From: Lama guanicoe
Taxonomy: Eukaryota
Length of the DNA stretch: 64,000 nucleotides
NCBI GenBank assembly: GCA_013239625.1
Contig: MU053557.1
Span: forward strand, 1,557,063-1,621,062
Direction: 5' to 3'
Position 1 is the first letter of the stretch. Every line of letters begins with the position of its first letter. Shown in pieces: positions 2,114 through 57,752 of this stretch. Under the pieces are notes generated by a model, which was not told the DNA's origin, did no database searches, and saw nothing but the letters and a program-made list of their open reading frames with translations. Both the position numbers and the translations under genes were made by a program.

Positions 2114-2435
2114 AACTCCTGTGAATATTAACTGAGTATCTCTGTGACACTCTCCTATATACTTGAATCCATGATCAGATGTCTGAACCAAGCTCCAAAG
2201 TCTGAATTTAAGAATCAAATTCTAAATATACCTCCCAGCCTAGGAACAAAGAGGAGGAAGCCACTCTCAGTTGTATGTTTTAATTTGATTCTTTCTCTCA
2301 AATTCTGTGCCTAGAAGGGTAATTGCTTCTCGAAACTATGCAGAGATGCTCAAAAAGCAAATCTCAGAGGAAAAAAAAATTTCCCCCCTCCCCACACACT
2401 CCTTCAATTAGAGAAAATAAGAACTCTCTGTAGCT

Positions 2436-3767
2436 AGATTTAATGCAATCCCTATCCAATTACCCAGGACATATTTCACAGAACTAGAACAAATCATAAT
2501 AAAATTTATATGGAACCATCAAAGACCTAGAATTGCTAAAGCATTACTGAAGAGAAAGAAAGAGGCTGGAGGAATAACTCTCCCAGACTTCAGACAATAC
2601 TATAGAGCTACAGTCATCAAGACAGCATGGTATTGGTACCAAAACAGACATATAGACCAATGGAACAGAATAGAGAGCCCAGAAATGAACCCACAAACTT
2701 TTGGTCAACTCATCTTCGACAAAGGAGGCAAGAATATACAATGGAATAAAGACAGTCTCTTCAGCAAATGGTGTTGGGAAAACTGGACAGCAGCATGTAA
2801 AACAATGAAGCTAGAACACACCCTTACACCATATACAAAAATCAACTCAAAATGGATTAAAGACTTAAACATAAGACAAGATACAATAAACCTCCTAGAG
2901 GAAAACATAGGCAAAACATTATCTGACATACATTTCAAAAATTTTCTCCTAGAAGAAATAAAAGCAAGAATAAACAAATGGGACCTAATGAAACTTACAA
3001 GCTTCTGCAGAGCAAAGGAAACCAGAAATAAAACAAGAAGAAAACCTACGGAATGGGAGAAAATTTTTGCAAGTGAAACCGACAAAGGCTTGATCTCCAA
3101 AATATATAAGCAGCTCATACGACTCAATAAGAAAAAAATAAACAACCCAATCCAAAAATGGGCAGAAGACCTAAACAAGCAATTCTCCAAGGAAGACATT
3201 CAAATGATCAAAAAGCACATGAAAAAATGCTCAATATCACTAATTATCAGAGAAATGCAAATCAAAAGTACAATGAGGTATCACCTCACACCAGTCAGAA
3301 TGGCCGTCATTCAAAAATCCACAAATGACAAATGCTGGAGAGGCTGTGGAGAAAGGGGAACCCTCCTACACTGCTGGTGGGAATGCAGTTTGGTGCAGCC
3401 ACTATGGAAAACAGTGTGGAGATTCCTCAAAAGACTAGGAATAGACTTACCATATGACCCAGGAATCCCACTCCTGGGCTTGTATCCAGAAGGAAATCTA
3501 CTTCAGGATGACACCTGCACCCCAGTGTTCATAGCAGCACTATTTACAACAGCCAAAACATGGAAACAGCCTAAATGTCCATCAACAGGTGACTGGATAA
3601 AGAAGAGGTGGTATATTTATACCATGGAATACTACTCAGCCATAAAAACTGACAACATAACGCCATTTGCAGCAACATGGATGTTCCTAGAGAATGTCAT
3701 TCTAAGTGAAGTAAGCCAGAAAGAGAAAGAAAAATACCATATGAGATCACTCGTATGTGGAATCTAA
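2436..3767 (+). CDS. LINE-1 ORF2p C-terminal fragment, 443 aa, 5'-truncated and non-autonomous
   Basis: Frame is open from the truncation point ([10 protein letters not shown]...[24 protein letters not shown]...[14 protein letters not shown]) into track ORF 2685-3767; C-terminal cysteine-rich motif [20 protein letters not shown] and RT core absent. Confidence 0.93.
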
Positions 3768-16200: not shown

Positions 16201-17749
16201 TTTAACCCAATTTGGGCCGAAGTACCTGCCATAAAGTGTGCCCACTGTGCTCAGGCTCAGTGTGCAGCCACAAGAATGTAACTGAATTATCAAAGCCAAA
16301 TGGGAATGGCATTTGGATGAGTTACTCTTTTCTGGGATAGACAACAAAGTCCTGAGCTAGAAATACTTGACCTCCCTCTGCCAATAACTGACACGGTCGC
16401 CGTGATCAAATGTTTCAGCCTTTGAGCCTAAATAAAATGTAGGACAGGATGACCTTTTAGAATCTTTCTAGGGTTACTTTTAGGGGATTCATGAAAATCT
16501 CCTGGGCCTATGTGATTTGACTGGGTATCTCACCCCAAAGTACTTAAGACAAAAAAAAAAAAGTTAGTCTGACAAATTAGAAAATGAGTAAGTGGTTCTC
16601 TGATGAATATAAATGGTATTTTAAAAAGTTTAAAGTTCTCAAGGTATTCAGGCCAAGATGGCTGTCATTTTTTTTTTCTAAACAGAAATTTTCTATTTCT
16701 AAAATACCTGTTTTTCCCACCTCTCTACTTCAATTTACCTGCGCAGAATTTGCCTAAATTAACTTAAGTGGTTATGTCGAGGACAAGTAGCAGAGAAAAG
16801 GATTTTTATGAAAACTATAGGAGGACATATGTTTCAGAATTATTAGGCTAGGTTTTCGTGATGTTCTCCATCCACAAATTTCCTCAGAGTTTATTCTTGT
16901 TTCCAAGAAGCAACCTGGGCATAAATAACCTGAACAGGTCCCACAAGACACTAGCAGCTCTATATTTGTGTCTCTAACTCCGACTTGCATGCACATTTAT
17001 ACTCTCTGAATAGGTCCAGTCATTTTCCACGGAAGATTCTGACACTTGGAAAAATGAGTGGAGGGAGAAAGTAACAAGAATTTGGAGTATTGTTTAGCCG
17101 GCAAACATGTGATTTGTCGTATCCCCCATCCCACCCCCAAATAAACTAAGTGACTTCTGGGACGAACCAGGAAACCTCAGCTGTCACCAAGCATTCTTGA
17201 GAAGATCTAACAGCTCCTGTCAGGAAGATTCCTTCCTTAAATCACATCAAGTTACATAATAGGACAAAAAAATTCCATTGTAATTTATTTCATTATTTTT
17301 TGTTCTAAAGCGCTCTTAGATTATTGACCCACTTGGACTACTCCTGTTGAAATTACCCACGATCTTACAAACCACAGCCTGTCTCTGTGCCCCATAAATC
17401 ACCAGACCCCCCAAAGCTACTGATCTTCTCCCTTCTTAAACAAATGAGGACATGTGGATGATGCAGAATAAAAAATACCCACAGATGTTTCATTTTATGG
17501 ATTTTATTACAACCTCAAGGAAATGCTTAAAAGGTGATGTTCCTGACATTCCGTACTCTATTTAAGTACTTTTCTGATTTAGCACATTAGATGGTGCACA
17601 AGGTGTCAAAAGGCTTACAAAAGTCATCGCCTGGAAATCAGGTCTGATTAGGACTTTTAATCCAGACAGCCATGTATTAGTGGGTCCTTAGCATTCCCCA
17701 CTCTCATCCACTAAAATCCAGTCACATAAGATAATACTAGTCCTTTCTA

Positions 17750-25739: not shown

Positions 25740-26420
25740 GACTGCCCCAGCTCTCACAAAGCCTTGTTTCTCTAAACTCTGGCAGACCTTGCGGACCAGG
25801 CCCCCTGCCTACACTCACTGTACCATACCATTCCTCCTCCCTTACTTTGCTTTGGCTAAAACAGTTGGTCTCTTCTCTGTTTTTCAAACATGCCAAGCTC
25901 ATTCCTAAATCAAGGACTGGTCCTTATTATGCCCTGTGTCTGCAATCTGTTCCTCTAAATCTGTACATAGCTGGCTTTTTCTTGTGCCTCAAGCCAAAAA
26001 GTTCAATGATCACTTTTTTGTCAAGGCTACCTAGACCACCCAATCTCAGTCTAACACTTCTCCTGTCCTGTACCACTCCCCTCCCATCGATACCTATTAC
26101 ATCCTGTTTTATTTTCATCCTCCTACCACTTTATCTGAAATTACCTCTTTCTTGGAGGAGAAATAATTAGGTTTATTTATATTTATTTATTTATGTATTT
26201 TTTTAAAGGAGGTACTGGAGATTGAACCCAAGACCTCATGCTTGCTAAGCATGCTCTCTACCACTTAGCTTTAGCCTCCTGTCTTTTTTATTTCAATGTT
26301 TAGGTTTTTTTGGTTTTCTCTACTACAATGTAAGCATCATAAAGGTAAGAGATTTTCACTGTTTACCACTCCAGCTCTAGCTTCTGGCACATAATAGATG
26401 TTTGATAAATATTTACCCAA
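25740..26420 (+). mobile_element. L2 3' fragment interrupted by a camelid SINE
   Basis: tttcaaacatgccaagctcattcct; ctggcacataatagatgtttgataaatattta. Confidence 0.65.
26147..26280 (-). mobile_element. Camelid tRNA-derived SINE (Vic-1-like)
   Basis: ggaggtactggagattgaacccaagacctcatgcttgctaagcatgctctctaccacttagct with (ttta)n linker; same family as 11011 and 30192. Confidence 0.85.
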
Positions 26421-30191: not shown

Positions 30192-30329
30192 GAGGGAAGG
30201 TACAGCTCAGCAGTAGAGTGCAGGCCTAGCATGCATGAGATCCTGGGTTCAATCCCCAGTACCTCCATTAAATACATAAATAAATAAATAAACCCAATTA
30301 CCTCCCCCACAACAACAGTAAAATAAAAT
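30192..30329 (+). mobile_element. Camelid tRNA-derived SINE (Vic-1-like)
   Basis: Head gggaaggtacagctcagcagtagagtgc...cctgggttcaatccccagtacctcca with A and B boxes; (taaa)n; TSD aaaatgcagtgt (30179-30190) / aaaacgcagcgt (30330-30341). Confidence 0.9.
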
Positions 30330-30641
30330 AAAACGCAGCGTCAAAGTATATTGCATCCTCACAATTCCCATCCAGAAAGTCAACCTCCATACCTGTTTTG
30401 ACAATGCTTTAGCAAACTTCTCTGCAAAATGTGTCATTTTTTGGATAACTAGTTAGCCACCCACAAAGCTCAGCAGGGAGACCCCAGGAAAGAAGATGAG
30501 AAAAGAGGGAAGCGACAAGAGATCCACTTGTACCTTGCTAAGAGCCTTTGGGAAATCGCAAGCCTGGATTCTGATGTCTGTCACAGGTGCCCAGAAACCG
30601 TGGGTCCAAGATCATGAACCGTTTCTGCCACTGGTCATTAT

Positions 30642-30680
30642 GACGAGACTGGGAACGTTCAGGGTGGTATGGCCGTCGAC
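30642..30680 (-). pseudogene. 5S rRNA 5'-end fragment (nt 1-39), tailless retropseudogene
   Basis: Reverse complement GTCGACGGCCATACCACCCTGAACGTTCCCAGTCTCGTC versus mammalian 5S GTCTACGGCCATACCACCCTGAACGCGCCCGATCTCGTC gives 34/39 identity; 17-bp TSD ccactggtcattatgac (30628-30644) / caactggtcattatgac (30681-30697). Confidence 0.9.
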
Positions 30681-30685
30681 CAACT

Positions 30686-30698
30686 GGTCATTATGACC
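30686..30698. promoter_or_regulatory. Perfect consensus estrogen response element GGTCAnnnTGACC
   Basis: GGTCAttaTGACC inside the 17-bp inverted repeat ctggtcat-t-atgaccag (30684-30700); motif match only, no binding data. Confidence 0.55.
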
Positions 30699-30939
30699 AG
30701 AGAAGGGAGAACCGCATTTTCATGCCCTGGGAGAGTCAAAGCAGTCAGACTAGCTCAGCATCACCAAATGGGGGTGTGGTGGGGAGGGCGAGTATTATTT
30801 AGGAAATTAACCTCAAAGGCACAGCATGCCACATCCATTAGGTTGGTTAAGAGTAAAATTGTGAGGTGAAGATCGGTGAAATAAGGAATTTAATGAACCA
30901 TTCACTTCTTAAATGGGCTAGAATTTGATAAGAACTATG

Positions 30940-31449
30940 GGTACCTCCTGTGCATTAATAAAGCCTCTCAGCCCCACTTTTCTTCCAGCCAGGGCTGCAC
31001 TGACCAGTATGCACTGACCACTATGCAGGCTTCAACCAGCTTCAGTTAGTGTGACCTGACCGTCCTTTACCCCAGTTAGTACTCCTGCCTGGGGCATCCC
31101 TCAGGGATCCCCTGGCACTCACGCATGTGCAGCCCAAGAGTGCCGAAGAGTTAATGCCCCACGGCACAACTGCTGACCAAAGAGTGGGTCACGGTGGCTG
31201 CTGTATCATTATTCCTCTTTTAGATGAACAATTCCAAGGCACAGTTCCTCAAAGTCCTCAGCAACCCTCAGAATCAATTAACTGGCTGATTAGCCAAATC
31301 AATAACACACCCTCTTAATGGCCTTCCGACCTTCCTTGTTTTCATCTCCTTGTCTCTCATGCCTGCTTCCTAGAATCACTTTCCTAAACAAAGCATCTGC
31401 ACACTGGTCTTTCTCCAGTCTCTGCTTTCAGGGGAAGCCAGGTTAAGAC
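30940..31449 (+). mobile_element. ERVL LTR, LTR16-like
   Basis: gcactcacgcatgtgcagcccaagagtgccgaagagttaatgcccc; tcctagaatcactttcctaaacaaagc; 3' end tctgctttcaggggaagccaggttaagac. Confidence 0.75.
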
Positions 31450-31529
31450 GGGTGACATTTAGCAGCCTCTACAGCACTGGTTTTTAAGTTGGGACCCACA
31501 GGACTCTGGGTTTCTTCACCAATGCAACA

Positions 31530-32289: not shown

Positions 32290-32339
32290 AGAAAAGGATT
32301 TTGAGGGGTCAAAAAGAAAAGGATTTTGAGGGGTCAAAA
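32290..32339. repeat. Perfect 25-bp tandem duplication
   Basis: agaaaaggattttgaggggtcaaaa x2. Confidence 0.95.
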
Positions 32340-42954: not shown

Positions 42955-43360
42955 ACTCATTCAGCAAATATGTAGGCTAAGTACTATTTTAGGAGCTGGG
43001 AACAGAGCAGTGAACAAAACAAAACCCTCATCTTCTTAGGGCTTACATCTTAATAGAGCAAGGCAGACAGTGCACAAATAAGCTTATAAACAAACATGAC
43101 ATTTCAGACAACAATTAAACGCTATGGGAAAATTAAGCAGGGCAACCTGATAGAGTTCTTGGGCTCAGTGGGTCAGGAGGTCAGGAAAGGCTCTCTGAAG
43201 AGGGGATTCATGGGGTGATGAAAAAGAGAAGATCTAGAGGGGAAACAATCTAGGCAGAGGAAGAGTGCAGACGCCCTCATGTGGGAGCAAGTTTGGTGTC
43301 TGCAGCAATAGAAAGGAGGGCCAGTGCAGCTGGACCTGAGTGAGTGATGGGGACAGTGGG
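42955..43360 (-). mobile_element. L2 fragment
   Basis: cactcattcagcaaatat...gagctgggaacagagcagtgaacaaaac; gtcaggaaaggctctctgaagagg. Confidence 0.75.
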
Positions 43361-43664
43361 GTCAGGTTGACCCTATAGAAACAAAACTACTCACAATCCA
43401 TCAACTATTGGGACATACTTTAAGCCCTGCACTAAACCAACTGTTCTAGTCATTTCATTCTCTCACTTTATCATTTCAGCCTTTTATTACATACTTTTCT
43501 ATTAGTTCCCAATAGTCAATGACTTGCTGGTACTTCTACTTTAAATTTTCTGTGTTCTTCCTCACTTTCTGCCAAACAGGTGCACACACATTTCCTGTAA
43601 AGGGACTCTACGAGATTTTTCTGTTTTTAGGAAATAATCACAACAATTTATGTCTTGTGGGCCA

Positions 43665-53600: not shown

Positions 53601-55930
53601 TTAACACTGGTCTGCCCCCCTCTGGAGAGAGCAGATCACTGTTTCAGGGTAGGCTCATTTGCAAATGACTAAAAATAAAAATGAAATGCAAACAAAATGT
53701 TCCTTGTCAGAATGAAGCTGCTGAGAAAGAGCAGTTTAAAAGCTGATTCTGAGCAAAAGAACATGGAAAACTAATACTCCTTAAATAGCTTCTTAAATAC
53801 AGTCATCAATCAAAAGTCATGTCTTCGTGGATCTTCATTATATGGGGAATCTACTGAAAAATGCACAGCCCCTTACTGCAAAATACACAGAGCAGTGACT
53901 TGCAAATAGTTTACAGAGATTGAGAATTTAAACAGACACAGCTGAGCCCAAGAAGTTATAGCCCTGTTGTCAACGAGAGGCAATAATTGAAGTCACCCAA
54001 CTAAATACTATTTCTAATGACACCTTGGCCATCTAAAAATATTAGCTGGAGGCCACGATGGAAACGCTGCTAAGTTGGCACTTTTCAGTGCACAGCAAAG
54101 CAACAATCTACCTCCTGTGCAGTGAGTCAGGAACTTGAATAGAAAAGCTGTCAGTTACCAAGGCATTGGTATTGCACTGTCCTGTTGGGAACTTTGAAAG
54201 AAACAGAAGACTCGGGCCGTGACCATCCAATCCCCATGCTCAGATGAATTATTAAGTATCAATTTAGATCAAACCACCCCAGCCTTCAATGCTGAATCCA
54301 ACTTAATGTTTGTTCTGTTGGGTTGTTTAATCAGACTGGATTCTGTCAAACCAGATGCGTATAAGGTACCAGAGCTGAAAACATATCAAAGGACACAATC
54401 GACTGGAGCTGGACAGAGAATTCTGTAAGGCAGTGTGGTAAAGCAGAGGATGCCTGGCAGGGAGTTGGTCAAAGACATGGAAATGTGAAGGTGGCAGCAA
54501 TGGGGACAACAACAACTATGGTGATCACGATCATGTTAAGGATCTGCAAAGGAAGGAAAGCACTTTCACAGTGTTGATCTCATTTAACCTGCAAGATGGC
54601 TTAGAGACAGGAAGAAGCATAGCTACGTCACTTGATTTGGTCACGACAGATGATCGGAGGTGAGTTAAGTTATTAGTGGAAGTTGGGAATGACCGTTCTC
54701 CCCACTTATTGGACATCTTATCATTCTTTCCCATAACAGCTCTATTTTAGAGCCTTCACTGGGTCCCAGTGTCTCTGAATTTCTGCGTCTTGACTTCAAA
54801 GTCATCCATTATTGCCCACACCCAGCCTTCTTTCCCACTGCTTCTCAGTACTTTCCCTCCCACACTGAAGTATCATCAATGTGACCCGGTCATTCACACC
54901 TCCAATCTTCACCAGGCCAGCCTTCAGCCAACTGCCCCCTCCCCTCTGCCCATCCAAGGCTGAGCTCAAATACAACCTCCTCCAGAAGGGTTGTCCCGAC
55001 TGCTTGGTCCTCTCCATTTTCTGAACAACCAGAATATCACACTTTTAGGCATGCAACTAAAACAAAACCTAAGAACGTGTTCTAAGTGGCTTGATATTTT
55101 CATATATGTTTGTTTTTGCCCTTTAAACTAGAGAACTTTAAGGCAGAGACGGTGTCTTATGGCCCTTTCCTGTCCCGTGGTTGTTCATTCTGTGTGGAGC
55201 TCACAATAGTGCTCAACACCCTTGTTCTCTGATCACTCCCCCTTCTTTCTATCATGGGTGTATGTTAAGAAAAATCTTAGGGGGACAGATTAAAATCTGC
55301 AGGATTTGATGCAACAAAATTTCAGAATTAATTTCCAATCATTCCCTTGACAGCTGCCTGCATAATAGACCGTTCATCAGTTTTTAAAGTCAGTTTATAT
55401 TTTAATGCAGCAAGAGAATATTGGACAGCTCCCCAGAGTAAAATTACCATCAAAGAGAAACTCCCCATTTTTAAGACTAAGAAAAATGCAAGTTATTTGG
55501 GATTGGTAAGACAGCAGGGAGAAGAATGAGAGGTGACTGGTCTCAAAACAGCTCTAACTGGAAAAGCAACACACAGATTAGAAGAACTGGCCTCTGTTCT
55601 TGCTTTTCCAAACCACCCTTTGACCCCTGGAAAACCACTCAGCAGCTCTCTGAGCATCTAATGAAAGATAGCACCTCACCATGTGCATGCACAATGTTCT
55701 CATTCTGTTCATTCCACATGGTTACTCTCATCCATATCCTTCTCTGTGGTCTCCTAATTCCAACTGTACCCACTTTAAGCCATTCTCCTTTCTAGATCCA
55801 GTACAACTTCTCTAAAGAGCAGACATGATCACATTACCTACCTGCTGAACTCCCTCAATGACTCTCCATCACTTTAAAGTCCGTACTCTTTAGTGTGGTG
55901 TATAAGGCCCTTCATGATCTGTTTCTTATT

Positions 55931-56495
55931 TGAGGCGGGAAGCCCCATAAAGAGACCAGCAGGACCTCTAGGCAGGGCCGCTGCTCTCCTCCCAGCACCG
56001 TCCGGTTCCCTGGACCAGAGGCTCTCACTTTTTGCCTCTAAAGCAGCTAACTTACACCTAAAATTCTGTTGGTTCCCTGAGCTCACTTCTGATTGGTTAT
56101 TTCCTTCACTCCTGATTGACTACTCTCACTCCTGATTGATTACTCTCAATTCTGATTGGTCCACTTCCCTAACTTCTGATTGGTCCATTTGTAGTACTTC
56201 ATTTGCATGGAGCTCACTCCTGATTGGCCTATTTCTACAAAGCTTGTTCCTGGTTGGTCAACTTCTGTTATATTTATTTGCATATGATGCTACAAAGTGT
56301 AAAACTGGCAGCCTATAAAAGGCCTGTGTAAACCTACAGATGAGGTTCAGAGCTTTAAGTGTTAACTCCTCTGGGCCAGCTGGCGTAATAAACCTGAGTT
56401 CTCCAACTCTGAGTGCTGCTTGGTCTCTCGCCTGGATCCAGGTTGCTGTCACATCTGAGCTGTAGCACCGAGCTGTAACACGTTTTTCCGCAACA
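55931..56495 (+). mobile_element. ERV1-like solo LTR with tandem CCAAT boxes, inserted in an L2
   Basis: tgaggcgg...ccgcaaca termini; probable 4-bp TSD attt (55928-55931 overlapping the first T / 56496-56499); TATAAAA at 56314-56320; AATAAA at 56387-56392; L2 text continues across the site (catgatctgtttcttatt|tacatctcc). Confidence 0.9.
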
Positions 56496-57752
56496 ATTTA
56501 CATCTCCTTCTTCCCTATCCAATCCTCCCTTTGACTCTAAAGCTCCAGTTACACTTATTTTATTTACAGCAACTCACATTTGCACTATCTCATCTCTGAG
56601 TTTTCACACAGATTTTTTTTTCCCAAGAACACTCTGCTTACCTCCAAACCTTCAATGTAATAACTTGTTATTCTTTGGATCTCAGCTTTGACATCCTTTC
56701 CTCCCAGAAGCTATCCTGACTCCAGTTCTAAGTTAGATGCCCAGCTTATGTTCCCCAATATGCACTATTTTCCCTCACTGTGGCACAGATCATCGTGGGT
56801 TGTGATTTTCTAGTTACTGTTCTATGTCCCAACAAGACTGTTAATCTCCTTTTGAACAGAGAATGTGTCTGTCTTTTTAATGAATTATTTCCAGAGCCTA
56901 GCATCATTCTTAGCCCACAGTATAAATGCTCAGTAAGGAGTCTGGAAGGAAAGAAGGAAGGAAGTAGGGGAGGGAGGGAGTAAGTCAAGGAAGAATCACA
57001 AAAGGAAGGGAGGGGGAGGAGAAGAAAGGGAACAGTTAACATTTCTGGGGCAAACAAATCAATGCCATAGCTTTTCCAAAGATGTAGCCATTTCCTAGGT
57101 GAGAAGAAAATGAACTCACCAGTATCTATTGTGAAAAAAATCTAAAACTCCCATCATGAATGAAATGTAAATATAAAGTTTCTGGATCTTAAGCAGTTGT
57201 TCTTTTCAGCAAAATATGTGCGAATTGGTAATAAGCTCTGTAGGTGTGAACATGGAATACTAATGCTGCCATAAAGAGATTTATTTTGAGATCTGAGACC
57301 CCTGAGCTAGAGGCATGTAACGTATTTACTTACTAAGCATGGAATTTCATTTGAATTGGAAAGAGTAACCTCAAATCATGGTGCATATATTTTGCTAAAT
57401 AAAAACAAACAAACAAAAAAGAAGAAAAAAAAAACACGCTGCAATATGCCCTCAAGAGAATCAGGACATATGTTATTGAGACCAATCCAGGAGAATACTG
57501 TTGGCAGAATGGATAGAAAAGCCCTGACTGAATGAGATGATCCAGTCAAAACTCACATTCATCATCACTTTGCAGTTTACAAAATGCTTTCAAGTGCATT
57601 AGAGCATCTGTTTCTCTCAAGAACAGATCATTCTACTCTTTGCTTAGATATCCCAACAGTCTCCCCTTGTTCTCAGAATAAAACTCAAGAATCTTTTTAT
57701 GGCCTCTAGTTTCTACATGGTCTAGCTCTTGCCCTCTGCAGTTTCATCTTAA

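Follow-up and report, generated by a model that had tools for sequence, protein, structure and literature searches.

The repeated motif at positions 30630 to 30700 of the window, that is, of the whole 64,000-nucleotide stretch analysed, is best explained by the insertion of a 5' fragment of 5S rRNA, a tailless retropseudogene probably made by LINE-1 through target-primed reverse transcription (TPRT). In the same reading, the second estrogen response element (ERE)-like site at this place would be a neutral and decaying by-product of the target site duplication (TSD), and not a selected estrogen enhancer. We give this joint reading a probability of roughly 0.8. The features of the locus are the following.

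30630–30644, plus strand: upstream copy of the TSD, 15 bp exact; on this strand it would be the primer of reverse transcription
30633–30645, no strand assigned: second ERE-like site GGTCAttaTGACG, one core mismatch; product of the duplication, last base from 5S
30645–30680, minus strand: 5S rRNA nt 1–36, reaching nt 39 at 30642, by direct alignment; 3'-truncated, without poly(A) tail
30681–30682, no strand assigned: two additional bases next to the 5' end of the copy, unlike the flank upstream of the reference 5S gene (L022); the relative X17 has another base at one of these positions
30683–30697, plus strand: downstream copy of the TSD, which runs on from the original target
30684–30700, no strand assigned: 17-bp inverted repeat with 7-bp arms and a 3-nt spacer, probably the target before insertion
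30686–30698, no strand assigned: perfect 13-bp ERE core GGTCAttaTGACC, no mismatches; outer positions of the 15-bp motif T and A, spacer TTA

Target site duplication and identity of the insert

The two TSD copies form a direct repeat identical at 15 of 15 positions, and the 38 bases between them consist of the 5' part of 5S rRNA on the minus strand and the two extra bases. Exact non-simple repeats of at least 15 bases at offsets of 25 to 120 bp are expected 0.008 times per window and two were found, this pair and a 25-bp tandem duplication at 32290. Given an exact repeat that flanks a 5S 5' end and this chance expectation, the duplication is real and beyond chance. The final three repeat bases (30642–30644) equal 5S nt 37–39 as well, so the length of the TSD is formally 12 to 15 bp. 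The tandem duplication (32290–32339) is perfect and carries one GGGTCA half-site per unit.

Read on the minus strand, 30680 to 30642 corresponds to 5S rRNA nt 1–39 and agrees with the 5S gene L022 at 34 of 39 bases (blastn E 2e-8); the runner-up ungapped 5S placement elsewhere in the window reached only 21 of 39. L022 comes from a metagenome scan with 44 loci; two of the eight inspected by eye are full 5S genes (L009 and L022). A search with Rfam covered 20 of the 44 loci and gave six 5S matches. L022 lay outside those 20 and was chosen as reference for its by-eye agreement with the dog consensus (Table S9, PMC5322556) and with the Rfam-confirmed loci L032 and L003. Rfam did not report the 5S piece in 30400–30900 or in the whole window. 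Once the stretch was cut at the junction, the piece matched RF00001 (model positions 1–38, 3' cut) with an E of 0.41 and under the gathering score, which is weak alone; the identification is therefore based on the direct alignment to L022. In the viral collection, an 18-base pattern gave no matches.

The copy begins exactly at 5S nt 1 (30680), without upstream gene flank. At the other end the 5S sequence passes straight into the TSD and an oligo(A) tail is absent. A templated origin of the two junction bases, with the palindrome as template, was also considered; X17 differs at this place. The internal promoter of 5S genes lies beyond the end point of the piece, so transcription of this piece by polymerase III is not expected.

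Comparison with known tailless retropseudogenes

The class of tailless retropseudogenes was named by Schmitz et al. 2004 (as cited in PMC5322556), and 555 human copies derived from 5S are reported (Noll et al. 2015, PMC5322556). The filter used in that study selects copies with a 5' end complete within 5 nt, a 3' truncation of at least 10 nt, a length of at least 30 nt, an identity above 69%, and TSDs of 8–35 nt that are at least 70% identical (PMC5322556). In the present copy the alignment begins at nt 1 and covers nt 1–39 of about 120, with the 34 identical bases given above. The TSD copies agree at all 15 positions here and at 12 of 15 in X17, and the tailless end is the feature that names the class.

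The locus has in common with the 5S class of Noll et al. the whole 5' end, a truncation near nt 36–46, the lack of oligo(A), a TSD between 8 and 35 bp, and, under the 15-bp reading of the TSD, a short complementarity between target and RNA at the truncation point. This pairing comprises 2–18 nt in the class, and here 3 nt if the TSD is 15 bp long or none if it is 12 bp long. In contrast to the class, whose targets tend towards TT/WAAAAWW or TT/AAAA (a tendency and not a filter), the target here is not A-rich under the 15-bp reading, and it holds an ERE core. The end point at nt 36–39 is also slightly short of the commonest one in cow, at about 41–42. Among 157 rows of cow 5S copies on chr1–10, a subset of the published list, 68 span 33–46 nt and 25 span 36–41 nt, with a peak at 42. 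Truncations of 5S at loop C are described in LINE-1 chimeras too (preprint 10.1101/2025.02.02.635956).

The searchable files of the Noll et al. supplements gave no matches for 'camel' or 'vicugna', and nothing specific on camelid 5S pseudogenes was found in the open-access literature. Two of the sequencing runs compared below, X6 and X13, contain a second 5S 5' fragment elsewhere (about 40 nt, matching window 30641–30680), which is a second tailless copy. Its flanks carry a repeat of about 15 bases (13 of 15 identical by eye) and no ERE in 30 letters per side. The same architecture without the motif therefore recurs in this genome.

Presence in a relative and age of the insertion

Sixteen of the 24 listed runs, under six organism labels, contain all sampled words of 30330–30800, and 13 runs are marked as potential sources of the window. 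Four runs were aligned. X6 and X13 show no difference from the window and may be its source, hence they add no independent evidence. X19 spans 30355–30527 only and stops short of the insertion site. X17 crosses the stretch in one contig, with 20 of 471 bases different, no gaps and the whole element present, which places the insertion before the split from X17 (4% of bases differ). This contig is 6.2 kb long, comes from an RNA library with a depth of 13.7 over the site, and may represent intronic pre-mRNA or DNA. An empty allele was not found in the three of the four aligned runs that cover the site, all of which are filled and show no joint, in contigs that drop rare variants.

Eighteen of the 20 differences in X17 are listed individually and the other two were assigned to the flanks. 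Of the five inside the element, 30640 lies in the spacer and 30644 (a CpG transition) in a half-site of the new site, 30691 lies in the spacer of the old one, and the other two are 30680 and 30682. Judged against the other TSD copy and 5S, four of these five are derived in X17. In X17 the new site departs from the core at two bases and from the 15-mer at four, the old site keeps its core and has one spacer change, and three of the 30 TSD positions differ from the window. The element is changed at 5 of 68 bases vs 15 of 403 in the flanks, which is a nonsignificant difference (p 0.19). Among the half-site bases that match the consensus, one of 19 is changed where 0.7 is expected, in this one relative. 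The old 13-bp core is kept in both lineages; no change in ten bases has a neutral probability of 0.68 and thus no statistical power.

Five differences from 5S are common to both lineages. The insertion would be about 2–13 times as old as the per-lineage depth of the split, or 1–10 times with each group of adjacent changes counted as one event. Prior to the split, five changes arose in the 36 bases of the insert and none in the 30 of the TSD pair (Fisher p 0.04, or 0.16 if the changes are counted as three events). The zero differences between the TSD copies before the split lean against simple neutral decay; perfect TSDs are also likelier to be noticed.

Insertion mechanism

The structure of the locus is consistent with TPRT, for which LINE-1 ORF2p would be the most likely enzyme. 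A nick in the plus strand would free a 3' end, in the simplest case with GAC as its last bases, and this end could pair with 5S nt 37–39 in the loop region. From there the cDNA would be primed and extended up to the 5' end of the RNA, so that the plus strand would be the cDNA strand. Two extra bases would then be added, and a second nick 12–15 nt off would yield the duplication. The target was by chance palindromic and fitted the ERE core, so the duplication took along 12 of the 13 consensus core bases.

In coordinates of the downstream copy, the possible positions of the first nick range from after 30694 (TSD of 12 bp) to after 30697 (TSD of 15 bp). Under the 15-bp reading three nucleotides pair with 5S nt 37–39, at a chance of about 1/64, and the nick matches the L1 endonuclease motif TTTT/AA at two of six positions. 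Under the 12-bp reading pairing is absent and the nick, TTAT/GA, matches at four of six, a level that 7% of positions reach. We infer the 15-bp reading, since priming of this kind defines the class and the three-base match would otherwise be a 1-in-64 coincidence. The description of the target as non-canonical for L1 in the sequence-only reading of this locus applies to the 15-bp placement, and less to the 12-bp one.

Two other origins of the break have to be weighed against TPRT at an arbitrary target. The palindrome, or a receptor bound there (together with TOP2B or recruited ORF2p), might have steered the break that received the 5S cDNA, and the poor L1 target under the 15-bp reading would suit this idea. 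Breaks at target promoters that depend on the estrogen receptor (ER) and TOP2B are described, and the LINE-1 ORF2 endonuclease is mentioned in rearrangements driven by the androgen receptor (review PMC7707372), so guided nicking is conceivable, although one case cannot prove guidance. The nicks lie at +2.5 to +5.5 and at −9.5 from the palindrome centre, hence the symmetry of a hairpin cut is absent, and the earlier proposal that the palindrome favoured nicking is not supported, in view of this asymmetry and of the abundance of short palindromes in the window (nine with arms of at least 7 bp and a 3-nt spacer vs 5.0 expected). A topoisomerase II cut has a 4-nt stagger, and the stagger of 12–15 nt seen here suits TPRT instead. 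With a four-of-six endonuclease site also available at TTAT/GA, and in a single case, we regard a guided break as highly improbable. The hairpin as a special feature was likewise set aside as unremarkable: inverted repeats whose arms are 7 bp and whose spacers are 0–6 number 113 in the window. The remaining scenario does without LINE-1: repair of a break, or a polymerase that switched template to a 5S gene or cDNA, would have taken up the 5S piece. This scenario would explain the 3-nt microhomology at one junction and the two extra bases at the other. It is already disfavoured by the start exactly at nt 1 without upstream gene flank; the end within the known truncation zone and a TSD length typical of TPRT also speak against it, and its probability is close to negligible.

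ERE-like motifs at the site

Compared with the 13-bp consensus core GGTCAnnnTGACC (Mason et al. 2010, PMC2853111), the downstream site is exact and the upstream site has one mismatch. Relative to the 15-bp consensus AGGTCAnnnTGACCT, with the outer bases T and A in place of A and T, the mismatches rise to two and three, respectively. A search with RGGTCAnnnTGACCY gave two mismatches for the downstream site and did not list the upstream site at up to two mismatches; the extended 15-bp palindrome is absent. The perfect core within the 17-bp inverted repeat, described earlier from the sequence, is present at 30686–30698. The near-perfect second site said to be created by the TSD also exists at 30633–30645 with its one mismatch, but its last base (30645) is supplied by 5S. 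It is an impure product of the duplication, because one to four of its bases come from 5S, whichever nick placement is taken. The conversion of one ERE into two is supported to the extent that a retro-insertion duplicated 12 of the 13 core bases; to the 15-bp motif the new site has three mismatches.

The distance of 53 bp between the two sites, previously read as about five helical turns, indeed amounts to 5.05 turns at 10.5 bp per turn. Phasing as a meaningful feature is not supported, as this spacing is simply the length of TSD plus insert, set by the place where 5S was truncated, and by chance about 29% of spacings lie within 1 bp of a whole helical turn. Spacing rules for EREs were not found in the open-access literature.

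EREs carried by Alu, MIR and LINE repeats (PMC2853111) resemble this case in that retroposition alters the ERE content of a locus. In those repeats the motif lies in the body of the element, whereas here it lies in the duplicated target, in a single case.

Base rates from human ER data

The ER data used here come from human cancer lines and may not carry over to this species. The human genome contains 2310 perfect 13-bp cores, of which 51 are bound in an MCF7 set, and 49,803 sites with one mismatch (Mason et al. 2010, PMC2853111). Among the 646 bound EREs of this MCF7 set, 12 start with TGGTCA and none of those ends with TGACCA, so that the T...A outer pair with a perfect core, as in the downstream site, occurs in 0 of 646. 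Among the 51 bound perfect cores the pair is likewise absent, vs 3–4 expected from background base frequencies (p 0.01–0.04). A single outer T or A is tolerated, since two bound perfect cores begin with T and five end with A. The spacer TTA is present in five of the 646 bound EREs, vs 266 with the favoured C(A/T)G.

The new site carries a substitution (C at its position) that is reported in less than 1% of bound EREs and is the rarest in the core (PMC2853111). CGTCA/TGACG half-sites, counted in both orientations, occur in two of the 646, a rarity to which CpG depletion may contribute. According to a 2026 preprint (PMC13344994), less than 3% of 82,534 EREs bind or regulate, and 40% of optimal EREs are bound. 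Non-conserved EREs can bind as well (Lin et al. 2004, PMC522873), so missing conservation alone does not refute function.

Sequence context of the window

The window is mammalian non-coding DNA. It harbours two perfect 13-bp ERE cores, vs a mean of 0.07 in shuffled sequence, and two were reached in none of 100 shuffles; given that the window was chosen for the first core, a second one has a chance of about 5–7%. At the relaxed 15-bp level six sites were seen vs 8.1 expected, without enrichment. Further features of the window are the following.

2421–3767: open frame of 448 codons
11073–11144, 26207–26278 and 30196–30335: three tRNA-like SINE heads
16441–16455: ERE with A/T outer bases, one mismatch to the 15-bp consensus
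43359–43373 (core 43360): second perfect ERE, G/C outer bases, no mismatches to RGGTCAnnnTGACCY, 12.7 kb from the site

By its sequence, the ERE at 43359–43373 would be a better candidate than the reported one. Its surroundings resemble what we take to be an old L2 fragment. A kilobase rich in CpG, with an observed/expected ratio above 0.4, was not found in the window; in the 500 bp around the site the ratio is 0.41, in part due to the 5S piece. FOXA, GATA, AP-1 and SOX motifs were absent within 250 bp of the site, where about three are expected in total.

No exons were recognised in 3700–64000, and a crude splice-site scan gave nine weak candidates, none of them recognisable. Thirteen open reading frames of at least 110 aa are present in the window, of which one is recognisable as LINE-1 ORF2-like; the frame at 2421–3767 presumably corresponds to the C-terminal part of LINE-1 ORF2. 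A bacterial promoter scan, irrelevant to a mammal, gave nothing. The SINE at 30196, 300 bp from the site, has an A-rich tail and a flanking repeat of about 12 bases beginning with AAAA, a canonical-looking L1 target. The stretches at about 30830–31450 and at 55920–56500 may belong to LTRs, which they resemble. The latter contains, at 56106–56158, a tandem unit of 20 bp in which CCAAT-like boxes recur on the minus strand.

Regulatory interpretation

A regulatory gain from the TSD, as put forward in the sequence-only reading, is not supported by the motifs. The new site combines three mismatches to the 15-bp consensus with the rarest core substitution and has two core mismatches in the relative, and the old site has an outer pair that is missing from the bound EREs of one human MCF7 set. 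Judged by these motifs, the regulatory reading of the pair is unsupported, with some evidence against a function of the second site.

It is unlikely, though to be taken more seriously than a working pair, that the original site at 30686–30698 acts as an ERE in some tissue, in which case the insertion would be chance and the second site would add little or nothing. The core is perfect and kept in X17 apart from the spacer, single outer T or A bases are tolerated, and the second perfect ERE lies 12.7 kb off, with ER sites known to cluster within 10 kb (PMC7337896). Against this stand the T...A pair (0 of 51), the TTA spacer, and the lack of a gene, CpG island or cofactor motif found close by, and the conservation of the core is powerless (p 0.68). 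A phased and synergistic pair with a stronger estrogen response would agree with TSD copies that are still identical in this lineage and in X6 and X13, with the spacing of 5.05 turns, and with reporters in which tandem imperfect EREs can add up (PMC2853111). However, the mismatches of the new site here and in X17 count against such a pair, its spacing is dictated by the 5S truncation point, and at the flank rate 68 bp would stay unchanged since the split with a chance of about 28%; synergy therefore seems very unlikely. We attach just as little weight to the view that the TSD-doubled ERE acts here as an estrogen enhancer which the sister lineage has lost, possibly after a receptor-bound site drew the nick of LINE-1 in the germ line. 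The neutral by-product of a tailless 5S insertion is the reading that we prefer.

Significance

In the open-access literature, nothing specific was found on a TSD that creates or duplicates a binding site. At the human ERE density, a 15-bp TSD containing at least 12 of the 13 core bases is expected 3.7 times per million insertions. With about a million insertions in a mammalian genome, chance alone should yield a few such duplications in each. For inserts primed by GTC only, the probability of landing on an ERE is 4e-5 per insertion, yet a scan of this kind covers every motif and every insertion.

The locus is one more tailless 5S retropseudogene of a known class, and a tidy case of a TSD that copied a transcription-factor motif. 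The insertion is usable as a presence/absence marker that predates the split of the two lineages compared. If the doubled ERE did act as an enhancer, it would mean a lineage-specific difference in estrogen regulation, and if the pair outdid the single site with estradiol, it would be a clean regulatory gain from a duplication scar and not from the sequence of the element. The broader and more valuable question is whether TSDs duplicate functional motifs above chance.
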